From Ignavibacteria bacterium (lineage in GTDB: Bacteria > Bacteroidota > Ignavibacteria > Ch128b), in the NCBI GenBank assembly GCA_013177855.1, contig JABLYA010000001.1:1527573-1591572 (forward strand): a DNA stretch of 64,000 nt, given 5' to 3'. The notes under the pieces were generated by a model. That model was not told the DNA's origin, did no database searches, and saw only the letters and a program-made list of their open reading frames with translations. Below are positions 2,237-20,855 of the stretch, one piece after another; within the stretch, counting starts at the first letter, position 1, and every line of letters starts with the position of its first letter. The translations under genes were made by a program, and so were the position numbers.

Positions 2237-2252
2237 AATCGGGAGATGAAGA

Positions 2253-5200: not shown

Positions 5201-5375
5201 ACTTTCAGGACAGCTGATTAAAACTATCTATAAAGATTCGGGTTATCTCGATGGTACTGTCTCCTGGAATTTAATAACTGATGACGGAATGGAAGCAGCC
5301 TACGGTGTCTATGTTTATCATGTTGAAGCTCCCGGCATTGGAGAATACATCGGCAAATTTGCATTAATCAAATAG
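2253..5375 (+). CDS. Large secreted Asp-rich (thrombospondin type 3-like, Ca-binding) repeat protein with T9SS-type C-terminal domain
   Basis: Signal peptide MMRKFVLFILLILVEYTFSQ; D-rich repeats (DNDGDWIPYSDLNGNGKWD, DDLGKDGVGPWD); FN3-like segment (PGDGKVFLYWDN...YLIYRS); C-terminus ...GVYVYHVEAPGIGEYIGKFALIK. Confidence 0.5.
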   Translation: MMRKFVLFILLILVEYTFSQVPYQIQLYRDEPKGNIQYRREGVMDGNQIRTLFYNNGEVGQWPYQPSGEWPKGSGHSYLDGVCVLIASEVTAPGTGQKIHPLESSYREWMDKDPVTGEIWGLEPVPGYVNPSSTKPAINTDPKSWPPIWPRALNLTPEWNGYWYGYFGRGVMNSDFETFFVMDDSRDKEFTRPPYLYFPIASDSDRGGLGLRVEVRGFQWSHVLAEDIIFWHYDIVNISDFDYPTTVFGFYTDCGVGGTQDSGDDCASFDLKLDLAYCYDNDGFGVPDMWKTGMYGYAYLESPGNPWNGIDDDEDGMVDERRDDGIDNDGDWIPYSDLNGNGKWDREENEPLNDDLGKDGVGPWDRQYNGPDEGEGDGIPTDGEPHFDKTDKDESDQIGLTAVSIYRLGEGGTGGGWPKDDESMWLKMVAGTFDTSLQRSNISMVFASGPFPLYKGLRERFSMALVFGEDLNDLVFNKETVQQIYNANYNFSKPPLKPKLTAVPGDGKVFLYWDNVAEESRDPFLGYEDNDPRKGYKKDFEGYLIYRSQEPEFNDIKVITDSRGLPRYWKPIAQFDKIDGIKGPDPVGINGAHFWRGDDTGLQYSYVDTDVKNGVTYYYACVSYDMGDPNYGTTGLQPSECTKIITVDYAGNVQFVDINCAVVTPNAPVAGYVPPQILGDTKQVTEGVGTGFLQFHVFDPRVVEDGTKYEFIFKSTNDYPLYKTLKYEIVRTKGSDVDTILTVDSSYIGADKVSPPFDGLAVTVINDTAVTIIDSLTGWLVGKSNLVMNVFPDQTPIRGVPWPADYEITFYDGPADTCYISSPPLYRRFPVNFKVWNKTEQKYCKIAVQDRDQSQSLSLGDVIQILEFKDKVITPANIRFAWNITYNSPFNPNVQPEYPKDGDKFIITTRKPFKTGDKFIVTTKAAATDNALAKSQLSKIDVVPNPYLGAAAWEKRNLNTTGRGERKIDFINLPNKCTIRIYTLSGQLIKTIYKDSGYLDGTVSWNLITDDGMEAAYGVYVYHVEAPGIGEYIGKFALIK

Positions 5376-5382
5376 CGGAGAG

Positions 5383-6420
5383 ATGAAAATGATGAAAAAG
5401 ATTTTTTACTCAGCTTTGATTTTTGTTATGATATTAAATTATGCTTTTGCACAGACATTCAAAACAAATGTTTCAAAGAGAGGAACTACTGCCGCACCTT
5501 TCCTCTCAATTGGTCAGAGTGCAAGAGCAATTGGTATGGGTTCAGCTTTCGTCGGTGCCGTAAATGATGTGAGCGCAATTTACTGGAATCCTGCTGGACT
5601 AACTAAAGCACAGGGCGGACAAATTCTAGTCGATTACACAAACTGGATTGCCGGCACCAAATACAATTTCCTCGCTGTGAGTTATAATATTGGTGATTAT
5701 GGAACAGTTGGTGTTAGTTTTACAGGTTCTAATATTGGTGATATGAAAGTCACAACGATTGAAGAACCTTGGGGAACTGGTGAGGTCTTCTCCGCTACCG
5801 ATATGGCAATCAGTCTTGCTTATGCTTTGCAATTAACAGATAGATTTTCCATTGGGTTCAATCCTAAATTTGTCTATCAGGGAATCTGGAAAATGAGTGC
5901 AAGTGCTTTTGCAATTGATATGGGTGTTCAATATGTAACTCCATTTGATGATGCAATTCTTGCAATGTCAATTTCAAATTTTGGAACGACAATGCAGCTT
6001 CTTGGCCAGTCGAATCTTGTTTTGTATGATCCAGATCCTTACACAACTGGTAATAACGGCAAAATTCCAGCTTATCTCGAAACAAAAACTTACGATTTGC
6101 CGCTGACATTTAGAGTTGGTGTTGCATATAATCCAATTAGATCTGCAAATCACAGATTGACTTTTGCATTCGATGCTTTGCATCCAAGTGATGACTATGA
6201 AAGTGTCAATGTTGGTTTCGAATATGGATTTCAAGATTTTCTTTTCATTCGTGGTGGATACAAATCTTTATTCCTTGATGACTCAGAAGAATCATTTGCG
6301 CTTGGATTTGGTTTGAAACAAAACCTTATGGGTAATGTAGCTGTTAAAGTTGATTACGCTTATCAAGATTTTGGAAGATTGAACAACATTCAAAAATTTA
6401 CTCTTACTGTTTGTTTCTGA
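5383..6420 (+). CDS. Outer membrane beta-barrel protein, PorV/PorQ-like (possible T9SS shuttle protein)
   Basis: Signal peptide; motif ARAIGMGSAFVGAVNDVSAIYWNPAGL near N-terminus; C-terminal aromatic residue (ends ...TVCF); TGA stop. Confidence 0.5.
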   Translation: MKMMKKIFYSALIFVMILNYAFAQTFKTNVSKRGTTAAPFLSIGQSARAIGMGSAFVGAVNDVSAIYWNPAGLTKAQGGQILVDYTNWIAGTKYNFLAVSYNIGDYGTVGVSFTGSNIGDMKVTTIEEPWGTGEVFSATDMAISLAYALQLTDRFSIGFNPKFVYQGIWKMSASAFAIDMGVQYVTPFDDAILAMSISNFGTTMQLLGQSNLVLYDPDPYTTGNNGKIPAYLETKTYDLPLTFRVGVAYNPIRSANHRLTFAFDALHPSDDYESVNVGFEYGFQDFLFIRGGYKSLFLDDSEESFALGFGLKQNLMGNVAVKVDYAYQDFGRLNNIQKFTLTVCF

Positions 6421-6433
6421 TAGACGCTCTCCT

Positions 6434-6472
6434 CCCGGATTCTGTTTCGACGGAATCCGGGACTGAATTTTT
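6434..6472 (+). terminator. Candidate rho-independent terminator after PorV-like gene
   Basis: Inverted repeat cccggattc / gaatccggg followed a few nt later by a T-run (aatttttt). Confidence 0.45.
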
Positions 6473-6484
6473 TAAGGACTGCCT

Positions 6485-8290
6485 ATGAAAAGAAAAATTT
6501 TACTTCTTGTATTCTTAATAATCCCAATATTTCAACTCCATTCTAAAGATTTTAAAGGAGCTGAATTTAGGACAAAACAATCTTTCCTTTACGGAAGATT
6601 TGAAGTTCGAATGAAATCGGCGTTCCGGGAAGGAATGCTTTCTTCTTTTTTTACATATCATGAATTTTCTGGCGGGATTGAAAACTGGAACGAAATTGAT
6701 ATCGAAATTCTTGGACGATATCCAAACGATATTCAATTCAATACAATCACATCAGGTCAGACCAATCATGTTAGTCATTATCCTTTGCCTTTTTCTCCAC
6801 ACGAAGATTTTCATGTTTACGCTTTTGAATGGACACCAACTTATGTTGCCTGGTTTGTTGATGGAGTTGAAGTTTATCGCCAGACAGGAGATCACATCTC
6901 AACATTAAACAAACCACAGAAGTTAATGATGAACATCTGGAATCCAGAAGCAACAAACTGGGCTGGTCAATTTGATCCAGATGCACTTCCGGCTTTCGCT
7001 TATTATGATTGGGTGAAATATTATTTGTATACTCCCGGCTCCGGAAATTATGGAACTGGGAATAATTTCACTTTATCATGGTCAGATGATTTTAATTACT
7101 GGAATACATCACGATGGGATAAAGCGACTCACACCTGGGTTGGAAATGGATGTGATTTCATCCCTGAGAATACTGTGATTAGAGATGGTTATTTGATTCT
7201 CTGCTTGACAAATAGTGTAAATATTGGATATACCGATGCGAAAGGTCCCGTTCTTTATTCTGCTAAAGTTCACAACGGAAAAATTCTCGTTAATTTCTCT
7301 GAAGAACTTGATGAAGTTTCAAGTCAAAATAAATCAAACTATATAATTTATGGTGTGACAATCGACTCGGCAAAATTACTTTCCGATAAAAAGACAGTCG
7401 AACTTACAGTCTCTGGTTGGGATTTTATCTCACCAAAAACACTTGTTGTTATGAATGTGAAAGATGATTGGAATCCTGCAAATACAATGAGTCCAAAAGC
7501 CGTTAGTATAGTAACGCAAACTCAATTCAATTTTCCTCTAAAAATTAATTGCGGCGGACCTGCTGCACTTGGTTATTTGCCTGAAAAATCCTGGACATTG
7601 ACTTCGGATTACGGTTCAATAGACGGCGGTAATTCAACTTATTCGTTTAACATTAACAATACAGATGAAGATGAAATTTATCAGTCTGAAAAATGGGGGA
7701 TGACAACTTATCGGGTTCGTCTTCCTAATGGCGTTTACAATGTTAAATTAATGTTTGCAGAAAATTATCATAATCAAGCCGGAAAAAGAGTTTTTGATGT
7801 CTGGATTGAACAGGATAGGATATTACAAAATTTTGATATTTATGCCTTAGTGGGAAGAAATACTGCTTATGTAAAAGAAGTTAATAATGTTCAGATTAAT
7901 GATGGTTATCTGGATATTTATTTTGTAACTCATAAAGATAATCCAATGATAAATGGAATAGTCATAGAATTAATATCACTTGGAGTAGATGAATCGGAGC
8001 TTCTACCAGAAAAAAATTTTATGCTTCATCAAAACTCTCCAAATCCTTTCAACGGAATGACAACAATCTCTTATAACATTTACAAACCTGATTATTACTC
8101 TTTTAAGCTTTACACTCTTCTTGGTAAACAAATTATTAAGAAAGATCTCGGTTATTTAACAGAAGGGAGTTACTCTCTTCATCTAAATTTTAATGAGATA
8201 AAAAATTTTACTCCTGCTTCTGGAGTTTACTTTTATGTTTTGCAAAACAGCAATTCACAGCAAACTAAAAAAATGATGTTCCTGAACTAA
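6485..8290 (+). CDS. Glycoside hydrolase family 16 beta-glucanase (laminarinase-like) with malectin-like domain and T9SS C-terminal domain
   Basis: GH16 catalytic signature NEIDIEILG; malectin-like stretch (YRVRLPNGVYNVKLMFAENYH...KRVFDVWIEQ); CTD LHQNSPNPFNGMTTISYNI. Confidence 0.8.
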   Translation: MKRKILLLVFLIIPIFQLHSKDFKGAEFRTKQSFLYGRFEVRMKSAFREGMLSSFFTYHEFSGGIENWNEIDIEILGRYPNDIQFNTITSGQTNHVSHYPLPFSPHEDFHVYAFEWTPTYVAWFVDGVEVYRQTGDHISTLNKPQKLMMNIWNPEATNWAGQFDPDALPAFAYYDWVKYYLYTPGSGNYGTGNNFTLSWSDDFNYWNTSRWDKATHTWVGNGCDFIPENTVIRDGYLILCLTNSVNIGYTDAKGPVLYSAKVHNGKILVNFSEELDEVSSQNKSNYIIYGVTIDSAKLLSDKKTVELTVSGWDFISPKTLVVMNVKDDWNPANTMSPKAVSIVTQTQFNFPLKINCGGPAALGYLPEKSWTLTSDYGSIDGGNSTYSFNINNTDEDEIYQSEKWGMTTYRVRLPNGVYNVKLMFAENYHNQAGKRVFDVWIEQDRILQNFDIYALVGRNTAYVKEVNNVQINDGYLDIYFVTHKDNPMINGIVIELISLGVDESELLPEKNFMLHQNSPNPFNGMTTISYNIYKPDYYSFKLYTLLGKQIIKKDLGYLTEGSYSLHLNFNEIKNFTPASGVYFYVLQNSNSQQTKKMMFLN

Positions 8291-8297
8291 ATCAAAT

Positions 8298-10544
8298 ATG
8301 GGTGTTCAAATGCAGCAAACATTTTTAATTTTTTCAATCTTTGTTTTAGTAATTACATCTCAACTTTTTTCTCAACAGTCAAAATCAATCGATGAGAAAG
8401 TACAGGAATTGCTCTCAAAAATGACAGTTGAAGAAAAAGTTGGTCAAATGACTCAAGTTACGCTCGAGGTTGTTTCTAAAAAACAGGGAACAAAAACTCA
8501 AAAGCACGAACTTGATGAAAAGAAATTAGAAGAAGCAATTGTTAGATATCATGTCGGTTCAATTCTAAATGTCTATGATGTTGCTCATTCAATCGATTAC
8601 TGGCATGAAGTAATTACAAAAATTCAGGACATTGCAACAAAAAAAACGAGGCTCGGAATTCCAGTTATTTATGGCATAGATGCAATTCACGGAGCTACTT
8701 ACACAAAAAACTCAACGCTCTTTCCTCAGGCTTTAGCTGTGGCGTCAACTTTTAACAGAAATATTGCTGAAAGAATTGGTGAGATTACTTCACTAGAAAC
8801 TCGAGCAAGTGGAATTCCCTGGAATTTTTATCCTGTGATGGATCTTGGAAGACAGCCTTTGTGGCCAAGACTGTGGGAAACATTTGGTGAAGATGTATAT
8901 CTTGCTCAGCAGCTTGGAATGGCTTACATTAAAGGTGCTCAGGGGAATGATGTCAGCCGTGCTGATAAACTCGCAACTTGCCTTAAACATTATGTCGGTT
9001 ACAGTTTCCCTTTCAATGGTTTTGATAGAACTCCAGCTTATATGTCCGAAAGAACTTTGCGGGAATATTTTCTGCCGCCTTTCGAAGCAGGAATAAAAGC
9101 CGGGGCAAAAACTATTATGGTCAATTCAGGTGAAGTAGATGGAATTCCCGGTCATGCGAATTATCATCTGCTCACAGAAATTCTTCGTGGTGAATTAAAA
9201 TTTGATGGATTTGTTGTCTCTGATTGGGAAGATATTATACGTCTTCATACAAGAGATAGGGTTGCATCATCACCAAAGGAAGCAGTTAAGATAGCTGTGA
9301 TGGCAGGCGTTGATATGAGTATGGTTCCGTATAATTTTAGTTTTTATGATTTACTTCTTGAGCTTGTAAAAGAAGGCTCTGTTCCAATGTGGAGAATTGA
9401 TGAAGCAGTGAGCAGAATCTTGAAAGTTAAATTTGAACTTGGTTTGTTTGAAAATCCATATCCGAAAAAAGATTACTTAGAAAAATTTGCAAGTTCCGAA
9501 CATACTCAGGCTAATCTGGAAGCAGCAAGAGAATCAATTATTCTTGCAAAGAATGATAACAACATTCTTCCATTAAAAAAGAATAAAAAAGTTTTTGTTA
9601 CAGGACCAACTGCAAATAAACTTTCGGTCTTAAATGGCGGCTGGACAATTACCTGGCAAGGAAATGAAGAAGAACTTTATCCTCAGGAGAAAAACTCAAT
9701 ATTAGAAGCAGTAATCGAAAAAGTAGGGAAGAAAAATGTTTTGTTTGAGGAAGGATGTTCTTTTGATAAAGAATTAAATTCAAACTCAGCAATTCAAAAA
9801 GCAAAACAATCTGATGTAATAATTCTTTGTCTCGGTGAACCAGCTTATTGTGAAACTCCTGGCAATATAAACGATCTCACACTTCCAGAAGCACAGTTGA
9901 ATTATGCCAAAAAATTAATTGCGACTGGTAAACCAGTAATTCTTGTAATCGTTGAGGGCCGCCCAAGATTAATTACAAAAATTTTCAATGACGTGAAAGG
10001 CGCTTTAATTGCTTTTCTGCCGGGTATGGAAGGAGGGAATGCAATCGCTGATGTATTGTTTGGCGATGTAAATCCAAGCGGAAAGCTGCCAATCTCTTAT
10101 CCCAAATATCCAAACGCAATTGTTCATTACGATTATAAACCAATTGAAAATTCTGCTGAGAATAAATATGACCCACTCCTTCCTTTTGGATTTGGTTTGA
10201 GTTATACAAAATTCTCTTACTCAAATTTAAGATTAAACAAAAATGAAATAACTGAAGATGATGAGTTGCTTGTTTCGGTTGATGTGAAAAACGAAGGTTC
10301 AATAAAAGGGAAAGAAGCAGTTTTGATGTACATTACAGATGTTTATGGTCAAGTTAGCCGCCCCAATAAACAATTAAAAGGTTTCGAAAAGATTGAACTT
10401 AATCCTGGCGAGACAAAAACGGTTACTTTCAAGATAAACAAAGATCATCTTTCATTTATTGGAATAAATAACAAAAGAATTATTGAGCCCGGTGAGTTTA
10501 TTGTAACAATTGGTGATCTGCAATCAAAATTTTATTTGAAATAA
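8298..10544 (+). CDS. bglX: Glycoside hydrolase family 3 beta-glucosidase
   Basis: GH3 motifs KHYVGYS and GFVVSDWEDI (nucleophile Asp); signal peptide; about 750 aa as expected for BglX-type enzymes. Confidence 0.8.
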   Translation: MGVQMQQTFLIFSIFVLVITSQLFSQQSKSIDEKVQELLSKMTVEEKVGQMTQVTLEVVSKKQGTKTQKHELDEKKLEEAIVRYHVGSILNVYDVAHSIDYWHEVITKIQDIATKKTRLGIPVIYGIDAIHGATYTKNSTLFPQALAVASTFNRNIAERIGEITSLETRASGIPWNFYPVMDLGRQPLWPRLWETFGEDVYLAQQLGMAYIKGAQGNDVSRADKLATCLKHYVGYSFPFNGFDRTPAYMSERTLREYFLPPFEAGIKAGAKTIMVNSGEVDGIPGHANYHLLTEILRGELKFDGFVVSDWEDIIRLHTRDRVASSPKEAVKIAVMAGVDMSMVPYNFSFYDLLLELVKEGSVPMWRIDEAVSRILKVKFELGLFENPYPKKDYLEKFASSEHTQANLEAARESIILAKNDNNILPLKKNKKVFVTGPTANKLSVLNGGWTITWQGNEEELYPQEKNSILEAVIEKVGKKNVLFEEGCSFDKELNSNSAIQKAKQSDVIILCLGEPAYCETPGNINDLTLPEAQLNYAKKLIATGKPVILVIVEGRPRLITKIFNDVKGALIAFLPGMEGGNAIADVLFGDVNPSGKLPISYPKYPNAIVHYDYKPIENSAENKYDPLLPFGFGLSYTKFSYSNLRLNKNEITEDDELLVSVDVKNEGSIKGKEAVLMYITDVYGQVSRPNKQLKGFEKIELNPGETKTVTFKINKDHLSFIGINNKRIIEPGEFIVTIGDLQSKFYLK

Positions 10545-10703: not shown

Positions 10704-12701
10704 GTGCTGAAGGTACCAAAAAATTATTTCTCTATTCTCCTTTTACTTTTATTTCTTTTCTTCAATCCAGAAAGTCTTCTTTCGATTGGTTTTCTTAAAG
10801 CAAAAGGAAAAGTAATAGTTGATGGAACAGGTCAAGAATTTTATTTGAAAGGAATTGGACTTGGCGGTTGGCTTTTGCAGGAAGGTTATATGCTTCACAC
10901 CTCTGGTTTTGCAAATGCCCAATGGCAAATCAGACAAAAAATTGTCGATTTAATTGGAGAAGCAAATACAGAAATATTCTATGAAACTTATCGAAGAAAT
11001 TTCATTCGAAAAATTGATATTGATTCAATTAAAGCCTGGGGATTTAATTCAATTCGGCTGCCTTTTCACTGGAATCTATTTGCTGTCAATACGAATCCGC
11101 CTCAATTTATTAACAAAGGTTTCGAAATAATCGACTCCCTTTTAGCATGGTGCGAAGCAAATCAGCTTTATCTTATTCTTGATATGCATGCCGCTCCTGG
11201 TGGACAAAGCGATGAAAACATCAGTGATTATAATCCTGCTTATCCTTCTTTATGGCAAAGTGAACAAAATAAAGATTTGACAGTCAAAATCTGGAGAAAA
11301 ATTGCTGAAAAATACAAAGACAAAGAATGGATTGGTGGTTATGATTTATTGAATGAACCTAAATGGAATCTGCCTCCAAACAATCAGCCGCTTCGAGAGT
11401 TATATATTCGAATTACTGACACAATTAGAGCTGTTGATACAAATCATATAATTTTCATTGAAGGTAATTGGTTTGCGACTGATTTTACGGGACTTACTCC
11501 ACCATGGGATAATAATATGGTTTACAGTTTTCATAAATACTGGAATTCAAATGATCAAGGAAGTATTCAATATTTAATTGATATAAGAAACCAGTATAAT
11601 GTTCCATTGTGGCTTGGCGAGACAGGTGAAAATTCTAACAAGTGGTTTGTTGATTGCGTCGAATTGATGAAACGAAACAATATCGGTTGGGCTTGGTGGA
11701 CTTGGAAAAAAATTGAAACTATTGCAGGTCCGCTTTCAGCTGTTATGTCGCCATTTTATCAAACTTTGTTGAATTATTGGAGCGGCTCGGGTCCAAGACC
11801 GAGCGCAACTTATGCTTTTAATGCACTTATGCTTCAGGCAGAAAATTTAAAATTTGAATTATGTGAATTCAGAAAAGATGTAATTGATGCATTAATGCGG
11901 CAACCAAATAACACTCAGACAATTCCATATAATCAAAACATAATTCCAGGGACTGTTTACGCTACTGAATATGATATGGGAAAATTAAATTATGCTTATT
12001 ATGATGTTGACTATCAAAATGTAGGCGGCGGAACCTGGAACTCTGGAGGAAAATTTAGAAACGATGGCGTTGATATTGAAACCTGTATTGATTTCGGTTC
12101 AAATGGATATAACGTCGGTTGGATTCAAAATGGTGAGTGGTTGAGATATACCTGTAATATTACGCAAAGCGGGACTTATAAAATTAAAATTAATGTAGCT
12201 TCAATGAATACAGGTGGACAAATCCTTTTGCGTCTCGATGGCTTAGTTCTTGGCGGTCTGATCAATGTACCAAACACAAATGGCTGGCAAAACTGGCAAT
12301 TTGTTGAACTTAACAATGTTTATCTCCCGCAAGGCATTCATCAACTTGAAGCAAGATTCTTTAACGGAGGCTTTAATCTCAGTCATTTTGAGTTTGAATT
12401 ACTTTCTACTGATGTGGAAGAAAAAGATTTATTACCGAAAGATTTTGATTTAAAACAAAATTATCCTAATCCGTTTAATTCAAAGACAGTTATTACTTAT
12501 TCAATTCCTGAAATCACAAATATCAAACTCAAAGTTTATGATTTACTCGGTAATGAAACTTTCACCATTGAAGAAGGATTAAAATCTCCAGGAACTTATG
12601 TCGAAGAATTTGATGCTCATAATCTTTCGAGTGGAACTTACTTACTGAGATTAGAAACTGAGAAAAAAACCTTTGTCAGAAAGATGATAATTTTGAAATG
12701 A
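10704..12701 (+). CDS. Glycoside hydrolase family 5 (endo-beta-glucanase/cellulase-like) with carbohydrate-binding domain and T9SS C-terminal domain
   Basis: GH5 catalytic motifs LLNEP (acid/base) and WLGETGEN (nucleophile); GTG start with upstream gagagg RBS; CTD LKQNYPNPFNSKTVITYSIP. Confidence 0.75.
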   Translation: MLKVPKNYFSILLLLLFLFFNPESLLSIGFLKAKGKVIVDGTGQEFYLKGIGLGGWLLQEGYMLHTSGFANAQWQIRQKIVDLIGEANTEIFYETYRRNFIRKIDIDSIKAWGFNSIRLPFHWNLFAVNTNPPQFINKGFEIIDSLLAWCEANQLYLILDMHAAPGGQSDENISDYNPAYPSLWQSEQNKDLTVKIWRKIAEKYKDKEWIGGYDLLNEPKWNLPPNNQPLRELYIRITDTIRAVDTNHIIFIEGNWFATDFTGLTPPWDNNMVYSFHKYWNSNDQGSIQYLIDIRNQYNVPLWLGETGENSNKWFVDCVELMKRNNIGWAWWTWKKIETIAGPLSAVMSPFYQTLLNYWSGSGPRPSATYAFNALMLQAENLKFELCEFRKDVIDALMRQPNNTQTIPYNQNIIPGTVYATEYDMGKLNYAYYDVDYQNVGGGTWNSGGKFRNDGVDIETCIDFGSNGYNVGWIQNGEWLRYTCNITQSGTYKIKINVASMNTGGQILLRLDGLVLGGLINVPNTNGWQNWQFVELNNVYLPQGIHQLEARFFNGGFNLSHFEFELLSTDVEEKDLLPKDFDLKQNYPNPFNSKTVITYSIPEITNIKLKVYDLLGNETFTIEEGLKSPGTYVEEFDAHNLSSGTYLLRLETEKKTFVRKMIILK

Positions 12702-14383
12702 TGAAAATTATAATTCAAAGTTTTTTATTAATCCTTTTTCTGTGCCTGATTTCAATTAGAGCTCAGTCGGTTAATTTCACTTCTTCAAATCTCCCAATAG
12801 TTGTGATAAATACTTTTGGTCAGGAAATTCCAAACGAATATAAAATTCAAGCACGAATGGGAGTAATTTATAATGGTGAAGGTGTAAGAAATTACATTAC
12901 AGATCCATTCAGTCATTACGATGGTTGGATCGGGATTGAATTGCGTGGTTCAAGTTCACTAACATTTCCTAAAAAAAGTTACGCAGTCGAAACAAGAGAC
13001 TCGCTCGGGAACGATAGATCAGTTTCATTGCTCGGTTTCCCATCTGAAGCTGATTGGGTTTTTTATGGTCCATACAATGATAAAACTTTAATTCGCGATG
13101 TTCTTGCTTATAAACTTGCTCGAGATTTGGGTAGATATGCTTCGAGGTCAAAATTTTTTGAACTCGTTATAAATGGCGAATACAAAGGAGTTTATGTTCT
13201 TCTCGAAAAAATTAAAAGAGATGCAAATCGAGTAAATATAAAAAAATTAAATCCAGCTGATACATCAGGCGATGCATTGACTGGCGGATATATCATTAAA
13301 ATTGATAAGCTTGATGGTGAAAATAACGATGGCTGGTATTCTAACTTTCGTCCATTCCCGCAATTAAGTGCAAGAATTTTTTATCAATATCATTATCCAA
13401 AACCCAGTGAAATCGTTGAAGCTCAAAAAAATTACATCAAAGCATGGATTTATGCATTTGAGTCGGCAATGTTTGGACCTTATTACGCCGATTCAATTCT
13501 TGGTTATCAAAAGTATATTGATGTCAATTCGTTTGTTGATTACATTCTCTTAAATGAACTTGTTAAAAATATCGATGCCTACCGATTGAGTACTTTCTTT
13601 TATAAAGATAGGGACAGCCGCAATCCAAAATTATTTGCTGGACCTGTTTGGGATTTCAATTTAGCTTTTGGAAATTGTGATTATTATCAGGCATTCAATT
13701 CAAGTGGATGGTATCTTGAGTATGTTTCGGAATATTCAAACATTCCAAGCTGGGAAAATTATTTCATTCCATTCTGGTGGAAAAAAATTTTTAATGATCA
13801 AAATTTTCGAACTAAATTCAGACAAAGATGGATTGAGCTTAGAAATTCTGTCTGGACAAATGAAAAAATTAATTCTACCATCGATTCGCTTGTTCAATTA
13901 CTTGAAGAATCAAGACAGAGAAACTTTCAGAAATGGCCTGTCATTGGTCAATATGTTTGGCCTAATTACTATGTTGGTCAAACTTACGAAGAAGAAATCA
14001 ACTATCTGAAAAACTGGCTCACATCAAGATTAGCGTGGATGGATTATCAGTTAATTTCTGATGTCGAAAAAGAGAAATCAGAAATTTCAATTAATGACTT
14101 CAAACTTCTACAAAATTATCCGAACCCATTTAATTCAAATACAATAATAAGTTATATCATTCCAGGAAATTTAAACTCACTACAAAAAGTTACTTTGAAA
14201 ATTTATGATGTTCTCGGTAGAGAGATCACAACACTAATTGATGATTATCAAACTGCCGGCTGTTATTCTGTAAATTTTGATATCGAGACAATTAAACAAC
14301 AAAGTATATCGACGAGCGTTTTAATTTGCCAGCTTTTTGTTGGAAATAAAACTCAAACTATCAAAATGCTTTATTTGAAATGA
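12698..14383 (+). CDS. CotH kinase-family protein with T9SS C-terminal domain
   Basis: CotH-like core (YGPYNDKTLIRDVLAYKLARDLGRYASRSKFFELVINGEYKGVYVLLEKIKRD); signal peptide; CTD LLQNYPNPFNSNTIISYIIP; 4-bp overlap with upstream GH5 gene. Confidence 0.65.
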   Translation: MMKIIIQSFLLILFLCLISIRAQSVNFTSSNLPIVVINTFGQEIPNEYKIQARMGVIYNGEGVRNYITDPFSHYDGWIGIELRGSSSLTFPKKSYAVETRDSLGNDRSVSLLGFPSEADWVFYGPYNDKTLIRDVLAYKLARDLGRYASRSKFFELVINGEYKGVYVLLEKIKRDANRVNIKKLNPADTSGDALTGGYIIKIDKLDGENNDGWYSNFRPFPQLSARIFYQYHYPKPSEIVEAQKNYIKAWIYAFESAMFGPYYADSILGYQKYIDVNSFVDYILLNELVKNIDAYRLSTFFYKDRDSRNPKLFAGPVWDFNLAFGNCDYYQAFNSSGWYLEYVSEYSNIPSWENYFIPFWWKKIFNDQNFRTKFRQRWIELRNSVWTNEKINSTIDSLVQLLEESRQRNFQKWPVIGQYVWPNYYVGQTYEEEINYLKNWLTSRLAWMDYQLISDVEKEKSEISINDFKLLQNYPNPFNSNTIISYIIPGNLNSLQKVTLKIYDVLGREITTLIDDYQTAGCYSVNFDIETIKQQSISTSVLICQLFVGNKTQTIKMLYLK

Positions 14384-14844
14384 TAATAAAAAATTTTGTT
14401 CAGGGATCTTATACAGCTCCTCTAAAAATTTCCGGAATGCAATGATTTTTATTTTCTGCTGCGCCTTACTGCTTAATCTTTTTAACCTAAAAATTTGTTA
14501 CCGAGTGTAATTTATTTCGATTTAATGATTACTATTCTCGATTAATATTTCTCAAAGAATTTCCATTCTTATTTCAACTCACCAGTTATATCAAATCCGG
14601 CAATGAAATTCGTTTACTATTTTCATTATACTTAACAAAATTCTTTTTTTACTTCATTGAGCAAGACATATAATTTGTTTTGGGCATTAAAATTCGGGAG
14701 AAATATTTAGCAGATAGTTTTGTTATTCAATAAAAGATTTTAATGGGAAATCTAATAACAGTTCTTTTAATGAAATGTAAAGTCAAATTATTGATTTTGT
14801 TTTTTAGAAAATTTAACTTGACTCAACAAAAGCGGGAGTTCAAA

Positions 14845-16800
14845 ATGAATAAAAATCTTAAACTCATAAAGTTTCTCCCCCTTCTTTTAATCATCTCTTC
14901 TTTAATTTTCACCGGTTTTGGCAGCGAAAAAAACAGAGCAGCGAAAATTAAATCTTTACAGACAGATAGTTACTATCTTAAACTTGACCGTTTTGAATTA
15001 CCTTTTACGAACAATGGAATACTGGCTGATGTGGTAATTTCGTCAAATGAGCCTCAAGCTAAGTTTGATGGCAAACAGGTTATTTTCTCTGGGGGGTTCT
15101 TAATTGGTGGACTAATGTACGCTGGTTCTCCATCTGAGCGTTTTTGGATCAATGGAGTATTCACCAGCTCTCGTGTTGAAGATTATATTCCGGGAAAAGT
15201 TGGTATGGATAAAAACGATCCAAAAGCTAAGCTTTACATTGTTCAAAGTTCAGATCCACCATTTTCTCAAAGCTGGCTGGAGTGGAAAAATGCGGTTGAA
15301 TTAGGAGCAGAATTTTATGACGGTGATAATGATGGTGTTTACAACCCCGTTGATAAAAATGGAAATGGCATCTGGGATGCAGACGAAGATAAACCAAATT
15401 TAATTGGTGATTTCACAGCATGGTGCGTTTATAATGATGGGGTTCCGCAAAATATTCGTCACTTTACATCAATACCACGATTAGGAATTGAAATTCAACA
15501 AACTTTATGGGCATATAAAACAATTCCTAAGCTGGCTAATTCTGTTTTTATTCGATATAGAATTAATTATAAAGGCACTAACGAATTTCCAGATTTAAAT
15601 AAACTCGACAGCGTTATTTTTTCCTTTGTTAACGATTATGATCTTGGTAATTATACTGATGATTTATTTGGTACTGATACTTTGCTGCAATCGAATTATT
15701 GTTATAATGATGGCAGTGATGCTGAATTTGGAAATAATCCTCCTGTTATTATGTCACAGCTTTTGCAGGGACCTTATGCTTTCATCCCTAATGTATCATT
15801 TGTTGATGCAAATGGTAATGGGATTTATGATTCGGGTGATACACCTATTACTTCAGCTAAAATGCTAATTGGAATAAATAAGGTTCAAGAAATTCCCGGT
15901 GCGTTGAATTTAAATATTTCATCATCAAGCTCTCAATTCACAGGTATTGTGGAAATTCCTGAATATGCGTACTGGAATATTATTCAAGGATTAAATCCGG
16001 TTGGTCTAAAATACAATCCTTGTAATTTTGATTACGGAACAGTTGTAGGCGGAGTTAATTGTAATCAAGTCAATCCATATTTCTTGTTTTCGGGTGATCC
16101 TGTTACTAATGTTGGATGGATTAATATTCGGAGTTCTGATGTCCGAGGTTTTCTCAATGTCGGCAGGTTCACACTTGAGAAGAATAAACCAGTTGATGTA
16201 ATAGTTGCTTATGCAATTGGAAGGGGAACTGATCCCATCAATAGTCTTATTGAAACTCGTAAAGTCGCAGCACTAAATAAGTTGTTTTATGAAATGAATT
16301 TTATTCAAACAAAAACATTGCCAACAACAGAATTAAAAATGAGAAGCTTTGAGGATAGATTGGATATATTCTGGCAAACTGCGAATGATTTTCAATTTAA
16401 GGATTTTATGGTTACATCTGCTGGAGATACTTTAATAAATACCGAATTTGAAGCTTATGAGTTGTGGGCTCATTCAACACCTGAGCTTTATTATGGACCA
16501 GATACAAGTCGTTCAAAAAAAGTTGCCGGTTTTGATGTTAAGAATGATATTGAAAGATTGTTTTTTGTGGACGACGATGGAATTACGATTAAAAATGTTT
16601 TCTCAAATTACACTCAACTTGACCCAGTAATTTATTCAAATTCAAATAGAGGATATATTTTGGTTTCTCTCACCGAAAATCCATTTACAGGTAAAAAGTT
16701 GAAGAAAGGGGAAAGACTTTATTTTTCACTTCGAAAAATTTATTTGAATAAAACTTCAACAGAGTTGTTCAGATCAAAGATAAACCCAAAAGTTATTTAG
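14845..16800 (+). CDS. Hypothetical secreted protein with Asp-rich Ca-binding-like loops
   Basis: Start moved to ATG 14845 (in frame with track ORF 14743, preceded by gggag RBS, followed by signal peptide MNKNLKLIKFLPLLLIISSLIFTGFG); motifs DGDNDGVYNPVDKNGNGIWDADEDKP and DANGNGIYDSGDTP. Confidence 0.45.
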   Translation: MNKNLKLIKFLPLLLIISSLIFTGFGSEKNRAAKIKSLQTDSYYLKLDRFELPFTNNGILADVVISSNEPQAKFDGKQVIFSGGFLIGGLMYAGSPSERFWINGVFTSSRVEDYIPGKVGMDKNDPKAKLYIVQSSDPPFSQSWLEWKNAVELGAEFYDGDNDGVYNPVDKNGNGIWDADEDKPNLIGDFTAWCVYNDGVPQNIRHFTSIPRLGIEIQQTLWAYKTIPKLANSVFIRYRINYKGTNEFPDLNKLDSVIFSFVNDYDLGNYTDDLFGTDTLLQSNYCYNDGSDAEFGNNPPVIMSQLLQGPYAFIPNVSFVDANGNGIYDSGDTPITSAKMLIGINKVQEIPGALNLNISSSSSQFTGIVEIPEYAYWNIIQGLNPVGLKYNPCNFDYGTVVGGVNCNQVNPYFLFSGDPVTNVGWINIRSSDVRGFLNVGRFTLEKNKPVDVIVAYAIGRGTDPINSLIETRKVAALNKLFYEMNFIQTKTLPTTELKMRSFEDRLDIFWQTANDFQFKDFMVTSAGDTLINTEFEAYELWAHSTPELYYGPDTSRSKKVAGFDVKNDIERLFFVDDDGITIKNVFSNYTQLDPVIYSNSNRGYILVSLTENPFTGKKLKKGERLYFSLRKIYLNKTSTELFRSKINPKVI

Positions 16801-16874: not shown

Positions 16875-18260
16875 ATGCCTTTAAATTTGATGTCCCCGCC
16901 TATTTCTGCTCAGTTGAATACAACAGAGAGTGAAATTTATTTTGAGGAAGTAGATAATACTCAATTGACAGATGATGAATATCAATTAAGTTTCTTTAAG
17001 GATCTATCTACTACAGATTACTCAATGTTCTGGCGATTAAAAAATTTAACTAAGAACAGAATATTGCTTGACTCACAAAAGGTATATTTCAATTTAGATG
17101 ATAGACCAATTGTTGTTGAAGGGTTGTATCCAAAGATAAGCTGGGTTGAACCAGAAATTAAAAATGTTAATTATAAACCTGAAAACAATAAATGGTTTGG
17201 TGACTTTAGAAGCGAGATTTCGGGTATTTTTTATTTAGGTCCTGAAAAAGTAAAAGGAGTTTCTGCATATAATATTCTTCCATTGGGTAATGTGGGAACA
17301 AAAAAATCCTCCTTAACGACTTTTGATAAATTAAGGAGAATTGAAATTCGTTTTGGCAAATCTCAAAAAGCTTACAGATTTGTCTCAAATTCGTTGGGAA
17401 CAAGATACTTAAGTGGCGCAAGTACTGAAGGGGTATCAGGAATATGGTACCCAGGTGAATATTTTGTTGATGTTCCTTTTCAAGTCTGGATAAAAGATGA
17501 TAGGTTTGGTGAAGAAAAACAACTTACCTGTGGTTTTATAGAAGCAAGAGCACCTTTAGGTGGAAATCCTGATGGTGAATGGGATCCCGGTACAAATATT
17601 AGTTTAACACGAGAATACATTATTATATTTAATCAACCCTACAATCCTTCTGGAAATCAAATGGAGTATGTTGGTTATCTTCCAACAACGGGAACGAAAG
17701 TTTATGCAGATTTGAATGGATGGAATCCACCGGCGGAAGCCAATTTTACACCTGAACAGATTGCACGGGCAAAATCTCCGTGGTTTGATGCTTTGCTTGT
17801 AGTTGGTTTAGAAAGAACTTCAGTTGATACATTTTATAAACCTGGAGATATTTTAACAATACCAATCTCGTATGTAATTACTTCAAGAGATACTTTTTAT
17901 TATAGATCAAAATCAAAAATGAATAAATTAACTCTTGAGGAGAAGAAATCGCAGGTAAGCAAGATTAATGTGTTTCCAAATCCATACTTTGAATGGGAAG
18001 ATTTTAGAGCAGTCAGAAACGGTGTAATAATTTTTTCAAACTTGCCGGAAGAAGTAACTATAAAGATTTATACACTGTCTGGCAATTTAGTTAGAACTTT
18101 GACAGAAAATGATAAATCATCAATAACTTCTCCATTTATCGAATGGGATTTAAGAAATGAGAATGGCAAGAAAGTTGCCGATGGAATTTATCTCGCTCAT
18201 ATTAAAACAAAATTTGGAGATAAGGTTCTAAAATTCTCGATTGTTAAGCAGAAAAGATAA
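16875..18260 (+). CDS. Hypothetical protein with T9SS-like C-terminal domain, paralogous to the C-terminal third of CDS 2253-5375
   Basis: C-terminus KINVFPNPYFEW...VTIKIYTLSGNLVRTL...GIYLAHIKT resembles VVPNPYLGAAAW...TIRIYTLSGQLIKTI...GVYVYHVEA of 2253-5375; no obvious signal peptide at the annotated start. Confidence 0.4.
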   Translation: MPLNLMSPPISAQLNTTESEIYFEEVDNTQLTDDEYQLSFFKDLSTTDYSMFWRLKNLTKNRILLDSQKVYFNLDDRPIVVEGLYPKISWVEPEIKNVNYKPENNKWFGDFRSEISGIFYLGPEKVKGVSAYNILPLGNVGTKKSSLTTFDKLRRIEIRFGKSQKAYRFVSNSLGTRYLSGASTEGVSGIWYPGEYFVDVPFQVWIKDDRFGEEKQLTCGFIEARAPLGGNPDGEWDPGTNISLTREYIIIFNQPYNPSGNQMEYVGYLPTTGTKVYADLNGWNPPAEANFTPEQIARAKSPWFDALLVVGLERTSVDTFYKPGDILTIPISYVITSRDTFYYRSKSKMNKLTLEEKKSQVSKINVFPNPYFEWEDFRAVRNGVIIFSNLPEEVTIKIYTLSGNLVRTLTENDKSSITSPFIEWDLRNENGKKVADGIYLAHIKTKFGDKVLKFSIVKQKR

Positions 18261-18467: not shown

Positions 18468-19484
18468 TTACTTCGCGTAAACCATAGCTTTTACTTTGAT
18501 ACCCGAATCAGTTTTCAATTTATAGTAATAAATTCCAGACGATAAATTAAACTCTCCGGCTTCAAAATAAGCTTGATGCAATCCGGATTTTAATTCGCCA
18601 TCAATAAAAGTTGTGATTTCTCGCCCGAGTATATCGAAGATTTTGAGATTGACTTTTTCGTTTCTCTTTAAATTAAACTGAATGATAGTCGAACCATTGA
18701 AAGGATTTGGATAATTCTGATAAAGTTCAAAGTTCTCGATAATTTTATTCTCATTTTCTACTAATGTTGGAGTTTTGAATTCAACAAGCTCACGCATTGA
18801 ACCAGGAATAAATAAATTCAGAGTATCAATTGAAAATGGTTCCTGAATCGATTTAATGATATATCTTCCCTGAGCAAGCCAATCGTTAAATGGAATTGTG
18901 ACTATATCAATTCCAATCGGTGGAAGCGGTGGAGGCAGGGCAACCAGATATTGAACTTTAATTTCAGTCCTAAATTTTACAGCATTGAAAAATCCAGCTG
19001 GAACTGTAACAGTATCAAGACCAAGTCTTGCTCCGCGCATAAGAAATCTTAATGGAAGTGTTCCAAGCTGTGGAACCGTTAGAGTTGTATCAAATCTATA
19101 AATTTGATAGAAAGTGCCAAGCGAAGTTCCAAATCTGTAATATTCAAACCAATCGGGCAATTTGAAAGTTATTAATGTATCGATTTCTAAATCTCTTTGA
19201 TGAATGAAAATGCTTTGAGTTGAAGCAGAAACCCAATTTGTATCTCCAATCTCAACTCCGGCGGGTCGTGATACAATAAAAAGAGTTTGTCTACCTAAAA
19301 AGTTTTGATAAGCCACAGATGAATCAATAATTACTTGTGGTTCACCAACCGGATTTCCAAGTGAATCAAGCAGATAAACATTATTAACCCACACATTTCC
19401 AACTTCAATCGGTAAATATTGCTGCGCATTTTGTGAGTAGAGAATTGAACCCATTAAAATCGAAAGAAGAATAAACTTCCTCAT
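18468..19484 (-). CDS. Hypothetical secreted protein with T9SS C-terminal domain
   Basis: Signal peptide MRKFILLSILMGSILYSQ; CTD LYQNYPNPFNGSTIIQFNL...KIFDILGREI. Confidence 0.5.
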   Translation of the reverse strand: MRKFILLSILMGSILYSQNAQQYLPIEVGNVWVNNVYLLDSLGNPVGEPQVIIDSSVAYQNFLGRQTLFIVSRPAGVEIGDTNWVSASTQSIFIHQRDLEIDTLITFKLPDWFEYYRFGTSLGTFYQIYRFDTTLTVPQLGTLPLRFLMRGARLGLDTVTVPAGFFNAVKFRTEIKVQYLVALPPPLPPIGIDIVTIPFNDWLAQGRYIIKSIQEPFSIDTLNLFIPGSMRELVEFKTPTLVENENKIIENFELYQNYPNPFNGSTIIQFNLKRNEKVNLKIFDILGREITTFIDGELKSGLHQAYFEAGEFNLSSGIYYYKLKTDSGIKVKAMVYAK

Positions 19485-19487
19485 TGC

Positions 19488-20855
19488 TCACTCCACTAAA
19501 ATTTCATAACTAATTTGCTGAACTTCAACGAATTTTTCCAGCTGAGATTTTATCTCTTTCGAATCACCTACTACGACAATCAAAACATTATTTTCCGGGA
19601 AATATTCTCTTATAACTTGCTGAATTTTTTCTTGAGAAGTGTTCTTAATTTTTTCAGAGAAGTTTGTCAATAATTCTTTGTCTTTATTATAGAATATGAT
19701 TTCAGTTAAAGAATTCACAAATCCTTCAGGGGATTGAAGATTTCTTGAAAGATCGCCAATTAGATAATTCTTAGCCTTTTTTATTTCCCAGTCACTAACA
19801 CCGGACTTTTTTAATTTTTTTAATTCATCAAGAATGATTTGAATAACTTCGCCGACTGTTTGATTTTTAGTAAATGTAGATATTAAAAATTTCCCACTTT
19901 GCTTCAGCATTTGAAATGAACTTCTTGCTCCATAAGTCAAGCTTCTCTTTACTCTTATTTCTTCAACAAGCCGGGATGTAAATCCATCGCCTAAAATCGT
20001 ATTAACGATTGATATTGGGATTTCGTCAGGATTGTTTTGACTTATTCCAATGTTACCAACACGAATTTGTGCCTGTGTTAATCCAGGTTTATCTACAAGG
20101 ATTAACTTTAAATTTGAAAGCTTTTGAATAGGTTGATCATTTAATTTTATCTTTTCACCTTTTTGCCAATTTGAAAATAAATTTTTTATAAGTTGTTCCG
20201 CCTCTTGAGTATCGATATCTCCATAAAAAAGAATGGTGGTTTCGTTTGGAACGAAATAAGTTTTGTAGTGATTGCGAATTTGTCTCGCTGAGATATTATC
20301 AATCTGTTTTACAGTTCCACGAATTGATTGAGAGTAAGGATGTCCGTTAAAAATAAATTTATTGAAAAATTGATTAGCAACATAAGTTGGATTTTCGAGA
20401 GAAGATTTTAATTCTGAAATTAACTTATCTTTCTCTTTATCAATTTCTTTAGAATCAAAAGCCGGTGAAGTTAGAATTTCAGCTAAGATGTTCATTCCAT
20501 CTTGAAAATTGTATTTTAAGAATTCAGTTGATACAAGAGTGTAATCGTAATTTGTAGAGATATTTATTGTTGATCCAAGAAATTCAAATTCTTCCGCAAT
20601 CTGCTGAGCAGTTCGTTTTGTTGTTCCTTTCAAAAGCAATTGCCCGGTTAGGTAAGTCAATCCCTGATACTTTTGCGGATCAAGACGCGCTCCGCCGTTG
20701 AAAATAACTCTAACTTGAACAAGCGGAAGCTTTTTGTTTGGGACTATAACATATTTTAATCCGTTATCAAGATTTTTTATTTCAAAATCAGAAACGGTTT
20801 GAGCATTAAGTGTATAAATGCAAATTAGAAGCAGAGTTAATAATATCTTTTTCAT
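19488..20855 (-). CDS. M16 family peptidase, non-catalytic subunit-like (no HxxEH)
   Basis: Signal peptide; M16 fold-like length and position immediately downstream of, and overlapping by 4 bp with, the HxxEH-containing M16 gene; no inverzincin motif seen. Confidence 0.65.
   Translation of the reverse strand: MKKILLTLLLICIYTLNAQTVSDFEIKNLDNGLKYVIVPNKKLPLVQVRVIFNGGARLDPQKYQGLTYLTGQLLLKGTTKRTAQQIAEEFEFLGSTINISTNYDYTLVSTEFLKYNFQDGMNILAEILTSPAFDSKEIDKEKDKLISELKSSLENPTYVANQFFNKFIFNGHPYSQSIRGTVKQIDNISARQIRNHYKTYFVPNETTILFYGDIDTQEAEQLIKNLFSNWQKGEKIKLNDQPIQKLSNLKLILVDKPGLTQAQIRVGNIGISQNNPDEIPISIVNTILGDGFTSRLVEEIRVKRSLTYGARSSFQMLKQSGKFLISTFTKNQTVGEVIQIILDELKKLKKSGVSDWEIKKAKNYLIGDLSRNLQSPEGFVNSLTEIIFYNKDKELLTNFSEKIKNTSQEKIQQVIREYFPENNVLIVVVGDSKEIKSQLEKFVEVQQISYEILVE

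Follow-up and report, generated by a model that had tools for sequence, protein, structure and literature searches.

A 64,000-nucleotide stretch of DNA from an Ignavibacteria bacterium (contig JABLYA010000001.1 of GenBank assembly GCA_013177855.1; this whole stretch is called the window below) carries a gene of the CotH family as the last member of a cluster that appears to serve the utilisation of β-glucan. The gene is real and intact, and its product belongs to the known CotH family. In the reading that we favour, and that we judge on balance probable as a composite, the product is an exported and active CotH phosphotransferase, encoded by the terminal, translationally coupled gene of the cluster and accessory to glucan capture. 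Secreted CotH proteins tied to polysaccharide-degrading systems are an already established, unexplained phenomenon to which the window protein adds; distinctive in the present case are the type IX secretion system (T9SS), the operon-embedded gene and the DxxxxS/WDxN variant of the active site.

The gene and the parts of its product are as follows.

12698 to 14383, plus strand: CotH-family gene, 561 amino acids plus stop (open reading frame list, Pfam, NCBI match)
12698 to 12701, plus strand: ATGA, in which the start codon of CotH and the stop codon of the upstream glycoside hydrolase family 5 (GH5) gene overlap
12698 to 12763, plus strand: predicted Sec type-I signal peptide, residues 1-22, with predicted cleavage between IRA and QS (inspection, hydrophobicity profile)
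12767 to 14077, plus strand: predicted kinase-fold CotH core, residues 24-460, in which the Pfam CotH part, residues 80-448, takes up nucleotides 12935-14041
13568 to 13591, plus strand: catalytic-loop motif N291-I-D293-A-Y-R-L-S298 (profile-profile alignment, conservation in 71 homologues)
13649 to 13660, plus strand: motif W318-D319-F-N321 (profile-profile alignment, conservation in 71 homologues)
14105 to 14380, plus strand: putative T9SS type-A C-terminal sorting domain (CTD), residues 470-561, diverged and under the curated thresholds

The open reading frame opens with ATG and is translated without interruption to its stop codon, and it is the single CotH gene within the 64-kb window. The Pfam CotH family (PF08757) matches over its full profile (positions 1-322 of 322) with an E-value of 1.4e-59 and 202.7 bits, compared with a gathering score of 23.8. 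An NCBI protein identical to the product (P0001, 100% identity) bears the name 'MAG: spore coat protein CotH [Ignavibacteria bacterium]', MAG standing for metagenome-assembled genome. What was found does not agree with a spore-coat role: the protein bears signals for export at both ends (signal peptide and T9SS CTD), it is encoded beside GH16, GH3 and GH5, and its source is an Ignavibacteria MAG, from a lineage that to our knowledge does not form spores. Given the export signals, the glycoside hydrolase neighbours and the lack of a Ser/Thr-rich repeat protein at the locus, 'spore coat protein' is to be read as a family label only.

Evidence on the fold came from structure prediction and from profile comparison, both of which used an alignment of 71 diverse CotH homologues with a mean column identity of 37% (alignment A2). 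An AlphaFold2 model of residues 24-460 built on this alignment reached a mean predicted local distance difference test score (pLDDT) of 95.4 and a predicted template modelling score of 0.93; a model from a shallow alignment of close relatives reached a pLDDT of 59 and was discarded. When the better model was compared with the PDB by Foldseek, the B. cereus CotH kinase (5JD9/5JDA) was matched with an E-value of 1e-15, and nothing else fell below 1e-3. A search of PDB sequences with the family profile found 5JD9 at 2.4e-7 when 71 sequences were used and at a marginal 0.025 when 23 were used, and a single-sequence phmmer search of the PDB sequences with the CotH protein gave no match. Profile-profile comparison with 15 Bacillaceae CotH proteins (alignment A3) gave a probability of 98.3% in local and 99.2% in global mode. 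An 88-residue B. cereus CotH fragment, used as a query, had returned only gene fragments, and intact Bacillaceae sequences were then used. The model thus points to the same atypical protein-kinase-like fold as that of B. cereus CotH.

The same alignments place the candidate active site. N291-I-D293-A stands opposite N-F-D-G, a motif invariant in Bacillaceae whose Asp is D223 in the numbering of the B. cereus group, and W318-D319-F-N321 stands opposite W-D-Y-D (D246); D293 and D319 are themselves invariant, in 71 of 71 homologues. In B. subtilis CotH the substitutions D228Q and D251A give an inactive kinase (PMC7821199). The Asp pair of the Bacillaceae proteins is 23 residues apart, and lies at positions 227 and 250 in homologues of 362 residues. 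From the identical 23-residue spacing and the near-identical numbering (D227/D250) we infer that D293 corresponds to B. subtilis D228 and D319 to D251, an equivalence that rests on other Bacillaceae CotH proteins, there being no B. subtilis-labelled sequence among the 120 matches listed. Beyond the Asp pair, 20 of the 110 aligned columns that are invariant in Bacillaceae have the same residue in at least 90% of the A2 family, among them R83, G84, K92, K93, D128, R133, E170, N291, W318 and R444, and the A2 family has invariant polar residues of its own in K173, R178, D203, Q243, E255 and K303. The earlier note on this DNA, made from its letters alone, had proposed CotH homology and named loss of the catalytic residues as the sign of a scaffold or binding role; the homology is borne out by Pfam, by the profile-profile match and by the fold match, and no such loss is seen. 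Since the core is intact and strongly conserved, the protein is most likely an active extracellular phosphotransferase, not an inert scaffold.

The predicted route out of the cell begins with a classical Sec type-I signal peptide, recognised by inspection. The N-terminus, MMKIIIQSFLLILFLCLISIRA followed by QS, comprises a basic n-region (MMK), a hydrophobic core of 17 residues and an A-x-A-like cleavage site, and its hydrophobicity reaches a maximum of 3.3 in a 12-residue window. Export as a lipoprotein was considered and rejected: Cys16 is preceded by L-F-L, and with Leu before the Cys there is no lipobox. At the other end of the protein, the CTD scores under the curated cut-offs of both PF18962 (17.2 against 27 bits) and TIGR04183 (19.2 against 23 bits). 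The neighbouring GH5 protein has a CTD that does pass the threshold, and over its whole length this domain can be aligned with residues 470-561 of CotH (38% identity, E-value 4e-19); the CotH family profile matches the solved T9SS CTD structures 8GLK (E-value 3.5e-5) and 8GLJ (1.9e-4). Precomputed annotation assigns PF18962 to orthologues whose identity is 77% or lower. The divergence is found in a sub-clade at 83% identity or more, made up of the window protein and its relatives P0002-P0010, whose CTDs fall under the Pfam and TIGRFAM cut-offs; in the alignment, the usual SGVYFY of the domain has been lost from this sub-clade and STSVLICQL stands instead, while the YPNPF, GxY and terminal K motifs are kept. 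On these likenesses we accept residues 470-561 as a diverged T9SS CTD. CotH would then share the destination of GH16 and GH5, namely the cell surface or the medium. The T9SS-related items of the window are limited to one PorV/PorQ-family gene and CTD-like ends on seven proteins in total; core T9SS genes such as porKLMN and sprA, if present, lie outside the 64 kb.

The cluster that ends with CotH occupies the start of the window, all on the plus strand and in the following order.

74 to 2236, plus strand: TonB-dependent receptor (Pfam)
2253 to 5375, plus strand: 1040-residue protein with no family match
5383 to 6420, plus strand: PorV/PorQ-family outer-membrane protein (NF033709, 215.6 bits)
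74 to 6420, plus strand: putative uptake module formed by the three genes above, conserved with the glycoside hydrolase genes
6433 to 6462, plus strand: hairpin (13-bp stem, 7 GC pairs) with a T-run after it (pattern scan only)
6485 to 8290, plus strand: GH16 gene with malectin domain and T9SS CTD (Pfam)
8298 to 10544, plus strand: GH3 gene of β-glucosidase type, with signal peptide and without CTD (Pfam)
10704 to 12701, plus strand: GH5 gene with CBM6/35 and T9SS CTD, directly upstream of CotH and overlapping it (Pfam)

All of the proteins of the locus, from the TonB receptor through to CotH, have signal-peptide-like N-termini; GH3, with a signal peptide and no CTD, is presumably periplasmic. 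The closest solved relative of the GH16 domain is the 1,3-1,4-β-glucanase of Fibrobacter succinogenes (3AXD, E-value 1.2e-57), and for the GH5 domain the nearest are 9KU5 and the endoglucanase CelC. Because of these relatives the locus looks like a utilisation system for β-glucan, and its target is probably a mixed-linkage or β-1,3-glucan. The profile scans gave no SusD-family match for any protein of the locus. The triplet of TonB receptor, 1040-residue protein and PorV-like protein resembles a SusD-less uptake module that uses a PorV paralogue, and the 1040-residue protein has a weak PorU-C-terminal-like or CTD-like end.

CotH is tied to this cluster at the level of codons. In the sequence ...GAA ATG ATG AAA... 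the GH5 stop codon TGA (12699-12701) overlaps the CotH ATG (12698-12700) by 4 bp, an arrangement suggestive of translational coupling. CotH orthologues begin at the next in-frame ATG (12701), from which the overlap with GH5 would be 1 nt. The hairpin listed above lies within the 64 nt that separate GH16 from the PorV-like gene, and may be a terminator or attenuator marking the 5' boundary of a GH16-GH3-GH5-CotH unit, apart from the uptake genes. No terminator-like site was found in the 360 nt 3' of CotH. The arrangement is consistent with co-transcription and co-expression of CotH with the glycoside hydrolase genes.

How far the linkage extends was examined with one genome per GTDB species. 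At least 585 species have CotH relatives, and the best 80 loci were compared with the proteins of the window locus. The order 1040-residue protein, PorV-like, GH16, GH3, X, CotH, where X is a variable position, recurs in seven loci of Ignavibacteria (L002, L003, L004, L006, L008, L010, L011) and in one of Melioribacteraceae (L015), as well as in the 95%-identical relatives L084-L086. The linkage to GH16, GH3 or GH5 is present in rearranged form in a Bacteroidota MAG (L013), in KSB1 (L014), in a Cytophagia MAG (L016) and in L021, and in L052 and L059 CotH adjoins a TonB/PorV-like module. The full triplet of TonB receptor, 1040-residue protein and PorV-like protein is conserved in L002-L004, L006, L008, L010, L011, L015 and L052. 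Position X is GH5-CBM6 in the window and in L002-L004 and L011, and a MAM-like CTD protein in L015. In L006 and L008 it is a second CotH of about 1200 residues (CHB_HEX_C/Fn3_assoc, CotH, LTD, CTD); this protein is of another subfamily, whose motifs DxxxxN and DxD resemble those of Bacillus. Because CotH is kept at the end of the block while its neighbour X turns over, a chance hitch-hiker is disfavoured.

In a neighbour-joining tree the CotH proteins of all these loci and the window protein fall in one clade, of whose 18 members 12 have such a context; the exceptions are L001, L005, L007, L009, L012 and L022. All other clades (Cyclobacteriaceae, Saprospiraceae, Rhodothermales, Marinimicrobia and others) lack it. 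The idea that glycan linkage is a general property of CotH-CTD proteins was rejected, the immediate neighbours in the wider set being heterogeneous: in 74 loci the upstream neighbour carries a CTD in 15, is a GH5+CBM6 protein in four, a CotH in four and a PhoD-like phosphatase in three, and in 72 loci the downstream neighbour is GFO_IDH_MocA in seven and DUF4956 in two. It is because of this heterogeneity that we take the glycan link to be a property of the clade of the window protein and not of all CotH-CTD proteins.

Some details of individual loci were recorded along the way. The second CotH gene lies between GH3 and the CotH orthologue at 6686-10297 in L006 and at 6716-10324 in L008, and a similar large CotH occupies 33-3587 in L014, upstream of GH3. 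An arylsulfotransferase-like CTD protein is found directly upstream of CotH in L013. The MAG of L003 bears the label I. album. In L010 (contig_15632, MAG MFD05942.bin.2.261) the 1040-residue protein, PorV-like, GH16 and GH3 genes are all split into short open reading frames, the kind of fragmentation that indel errors in long reads typically cause when left uncorrected, and not that of real pseudogenes.

The mechanism that we propose can be set out briefly. Equipped with a Sec signal peptide and a T9SS CTD, CotH would reach the cell surface or the medium as the product of the last, translationally coupled gene of a β-glucan utilisation cluster. There GH16 and GH5, which also carry CTDs, would act as surface endoglucanases, and GH3 would act in the periplasm, with uptake of the glucan proceeding through the TonB receptor, the 1040-residue protein and the PorV-like protein. 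The CotH core would be a genuine enzyme of the atypical protein-kinase fold, with an intact nucleotide-binding and catalytic core under strong purifying selection, and would assist glucan capture as an accessory factor; it would be to the T9SS of a Gram-negative bacterium what dockerin-bearing CotH proteins are to cellulosomes. The phosphotransferase activity itself is read from the conserved sequence.

Several observations weigh against this proposal. The structure is a prediction and not a solved one. Where Bacillus CotH has the invariant Asn of DGFVHN (N228), the window protein has S298, a position that is Ser in 71 of 71 homologues, and where the second Asp of WDYD (D248) stands in Bacillus it has N321, a position that is Asn in 59 of 71 and Asp in 10 of 71. 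In canonical kinases the Asn of HRDxxxxN binds Mg, and by analogy the two changes may mean an altered use of metal, chemistry or donor. We know of no source of ATP in the periplasm or outside the cell, a paradox that has likewise been raised for cellulosomal CotH proteins (PMC12774918). No CotB/CotG-like Ser/Thr-rich repeat protein was found among the proteins of the locus, and the transcript has no terminator or promoter evidence in its favour, the promoter scan, which covered sigma-70 sites, having found fewer of them than in shuffled sequences. Close relatives in Ignavibacteria (L001, L005, L007, L012) stand in heterogeneous, unrelated contexts, as do some 60 more distant CotH-CTD loci, which limits the glycan linkage to one clade. 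It is the absence of a CotB/CotG-like substrate nearby and of a known ATP compartment in the periplasm or outside the cell that holds our confidence in the composite at the level given above.

Is the CotH core an enzyme at all, or a non-catalytic binding or scaffold module, its kinase fold serving as a surface for glycan or partner proteins? We regard the second answer as unlikely but deserving of weight. It would suit the lack of an obvious phosphate donor outside the cell, the changes to S298 and N321 could impair metal binding, and binding modules are occasionally fused to the longer relatives (LTD in 11 of 58; CBM9, F5/8C and LamG in one each). The CotH invasins of Mucorales, moreover, bind host GRP78 through the kinase fold, and for the CotH proteins of cellulosomes, binding to plant cell walls (PMC8665504) or a structural role (PMC12484212) has been suggested. 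On the other side is the conservation of the core, in which both Asp and about 20 Bacillus-invariant residues are invariant or at 90% or more over the 71 homologues, at only 37% mean column identity. Pseudokinases typically lose their catalytic residues, and the invariant active site makes a pure scaffold role less likely.

A second alternative, which we hold to be less probable again, is that CotH has nothing to do with glucan: it would be a general T9SS-secreted enzyme, for instance of surface-protein modification or of phosphate or polyphosphate metabolism, that stands behind GH5 for historical reasons. The four loci L001, L005, L007 and L012 have orthologue-level proteins in unrelated contexts, in L001 with a PHO4/PhoU pair about 7 kb off, and the neighbours in the wider family include the PhoD-like phosphatase (three of 74) and DUF4956 (two of 72) already mentioned. 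A CotH gene beside a polyphosphate polymerase and DUF4956 has been described next to Gram-positive pel loci (PMC7112168). Scanning of the window proteins, however, revealed no polyphosphate, PPK, VTC, DUF4956 or PhoD genes. The overlap of the GH5 stop and CotH start codons also speaks against a merely historical position, as do the retention of CotH 3' of the GH block over family- and phylum-level divergence despite replacement of its neighbours, and the presence in some GH blocks of two CotH genes from different subfamilies.

The remaining alternative, a glycan-directed kinase that phosphorylates β-glucan chains or oligosaccharides at the surface and could so tag or retain products for TonB uptake, would fit the operon and the clade-specific residues and has a model in Fam20B and POMK, which phosphorylate xylose and mannose respectively, but we think it improbable, given that no CotH has been shown to phosphorylate a sugar and the family offers no precedent, that a donor is again lacking outside the cell, that Pfam reveals no hydrolase or transporter specific for phospho-sugars at the locus, and that most CotH-CTD relatives lie outside glycan loci.

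Set beside known systems, the exported phosphotransferase that we favour differs from the CotH of Bacillus spore coats, with which (B. subtilis; B. cereus 5JD9/5JDA) the window protein shares some 16-21% identity. The Bacillus protein, a Ser/Thr kinase, patterns the spore coat; it phosphorylates the Ser-rich CotB and CotG in the mother-cell cytoplasm and has neither signal peptide nor CTD (PMC7821199). In contrast, the window protein is predicted to be exported, has no CotB/CotG-like gene nearby, and has the active-site motifs DxxxxS and WDFN where the Bacillus proteins have DxxxxN and WDYD.

A parallel is offered by cellulosomes. The claims of the earlier note that CotH bears a signal peptide and a T9SS CTD, overlaps the GH5 gene by 4 bp and is linked to glycoside hydrolases have stood up: the N-terminus agrees with the first on inspection, the CTD is homologous to that of GH5 and to solved CTDs, the ATGA lies at 12698-12701, and the linkage is conserved in eight other species of Ignavibacteria and Melioribacteraceae and rearranged in KSB1 and Bacteroidota MAGs. 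Its description of a secreted kinase in a glycan operon as unusual was overstated, CotH being known in cellulosomes and CotH proteins with CTDs numbering thousands. The fungal cellulosomal CotH proteins studied by Lillington et al. in 2023 reportedly have conserved ATP and Mg motifs and hydrolyse ATP. CotH modules are recognised non-CAZyme components (CAZymes being carbohydrate-active enzymes) of bacterial and fungal cellulosomes, with examples in CseP/Cthe_0044 and Cthe_0239 of C. thermocellum, Ccel_1101 of R. cellulolyticum and the dockerin-CotH proteins of Neocallimastigomycota, and they have in common with the window protein an extracellular CotH module joined physically or genetically to polysaccharide-degrading machinery (PMC6083626, PMC12774918, PMC12484212, PMC8665504). 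The second CotH of L006, L008 and L014, with its LTD and Fn3-associated domains, is of the architectural type of Cthe_0239 (LTD, LTD, Fn3, CotH; PMC6083626). Cellulosomal CotH proteins have a dockerin and lignocellulose as their target, whereas the window protein has a T9SS CTD in a diderm and shares an operon with uptake through a TonB receptor. Pfam found no dockerin in it, and Dockerin_1 in only one of the 58 longer relatives. The window protein thus resembles the cellulosomal class in its working, a likeness of architecture and context and not of compared sequence, yet with a CTD in place of a dockerin it is not a member.

With the polysaccharide utilisation loci (PULs) of Bacteroidota that combine SusC/SusD with T9SS CAZymes, the locus shares a TonB-dependent receptor, surface endo-enzymes with CTDs and a periplasmic exo-enzyme; it differs in that no SusD was detected, the 1040-residue protein and the PorV/PorQ-family protein being found in the adjacent positions. 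The Fam20 kinases (the protein kinase Fam20C, the xylosylkinase Fam20B) are eukaryotic and act in the Golgi, into which ATP is imported, and the window CotH shows no detectable membership of their sequence family. The invasins CotH2 and CotH3 of Mucorales are likewise surface-exposed members of the CotH family with a role other than in the spore coat, but they are eukaryotic, bind a host receptor and have no known tie to glycan catabolism (PMC9973265).

The wider family is large. Relatives at an E-value of 1e-5 or below made up 6,615 of the 8,000 candidates scored (90% clustering), and 50% clustering gave 3,332 clusters at 1e-30 or below. PF18962 is present in most of the top 120 homologues, and a CTD in 44 of the 58 longer relatives; besides the modules already named, a P-domain occurs in 10 of the 58. 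A search of the literature brought up nothing relevant on CotH in combination with T9SS (type IX secretion) or PULs.

The remainder of the window holds housekeeping genes (BamA, LpxC-FabZ, Rnf, IDH and others) and further CTD proteins. Downstream of CotH, on the plus strand, the open reading frames 14743-16800 (685 residues) and 16875-18260 (461 residues, with CTD) are the halves of one CTD protein of 1138 residues, which is intact in the 95%-identical L084-L086 (12145-15561); tblastn places a frame switch near residues 620-649. Either the window copy is a pseudogene with a frameshift or the assembly is in error here, and the true start is probably near 14845. On the minus strand, 18468-22159 encodes a CTD protein of 338 residues and then a pair of M16 peptidases (455 and 435 residues), an arrangement kept in L084-L086. 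Also on the minus strand are a 1378-residue FG-GAP/ASH/β-propeller protein with CTD (40749-44885), a 724-residue CTD protein with no other domain match (46280-48454) and a 677-residue FG-GAP repeat protein (58975-61008).

What, then, might a secreted CotH contribute to the use of a polysaccharide? No other non-CAZyme class in fungal cellulosomes is as large as that of the extracellular CotH kinases, which are found again in bacterial cellulosomes and whose role and phosphate donor are unexplained. With the window locus, the association of CotH with polysaccharide breakdown extends to diderm bacteria of the Fibrobacterota-Chlorobiota-Bacteroidota (FCB) group. For thousands of T9SS cargo proteins the annotation 'spore coat protein CotH' is misleading. 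Here CotH is built into a small and simple β-glucan operon, with overlapping codons and with synteny kept over families, which makes for a tractable system: the candidate partners are few (GH16, GH3, GH5, the TonB receptor, the 1040-residue protein and the PorV-like protein), the candidate glycan is defined, and cultivable relatives exist in Ignavibacterium and Melioribacter. As a long shot, we suggest that the FCB clade of CotH proteins with the DxxxxS/WDxN active site may be extracellular glycan-directed phosphotransferases that act on β-glucan fragments or on the glucan-binding surface apparatus, perhaps with polyphosphate or pyrophosphate as the donor. If that were true, the CotH proteins of polysaccharide-degrading systems, those of cellulosomes included, would for the first time have a mechanistic role.

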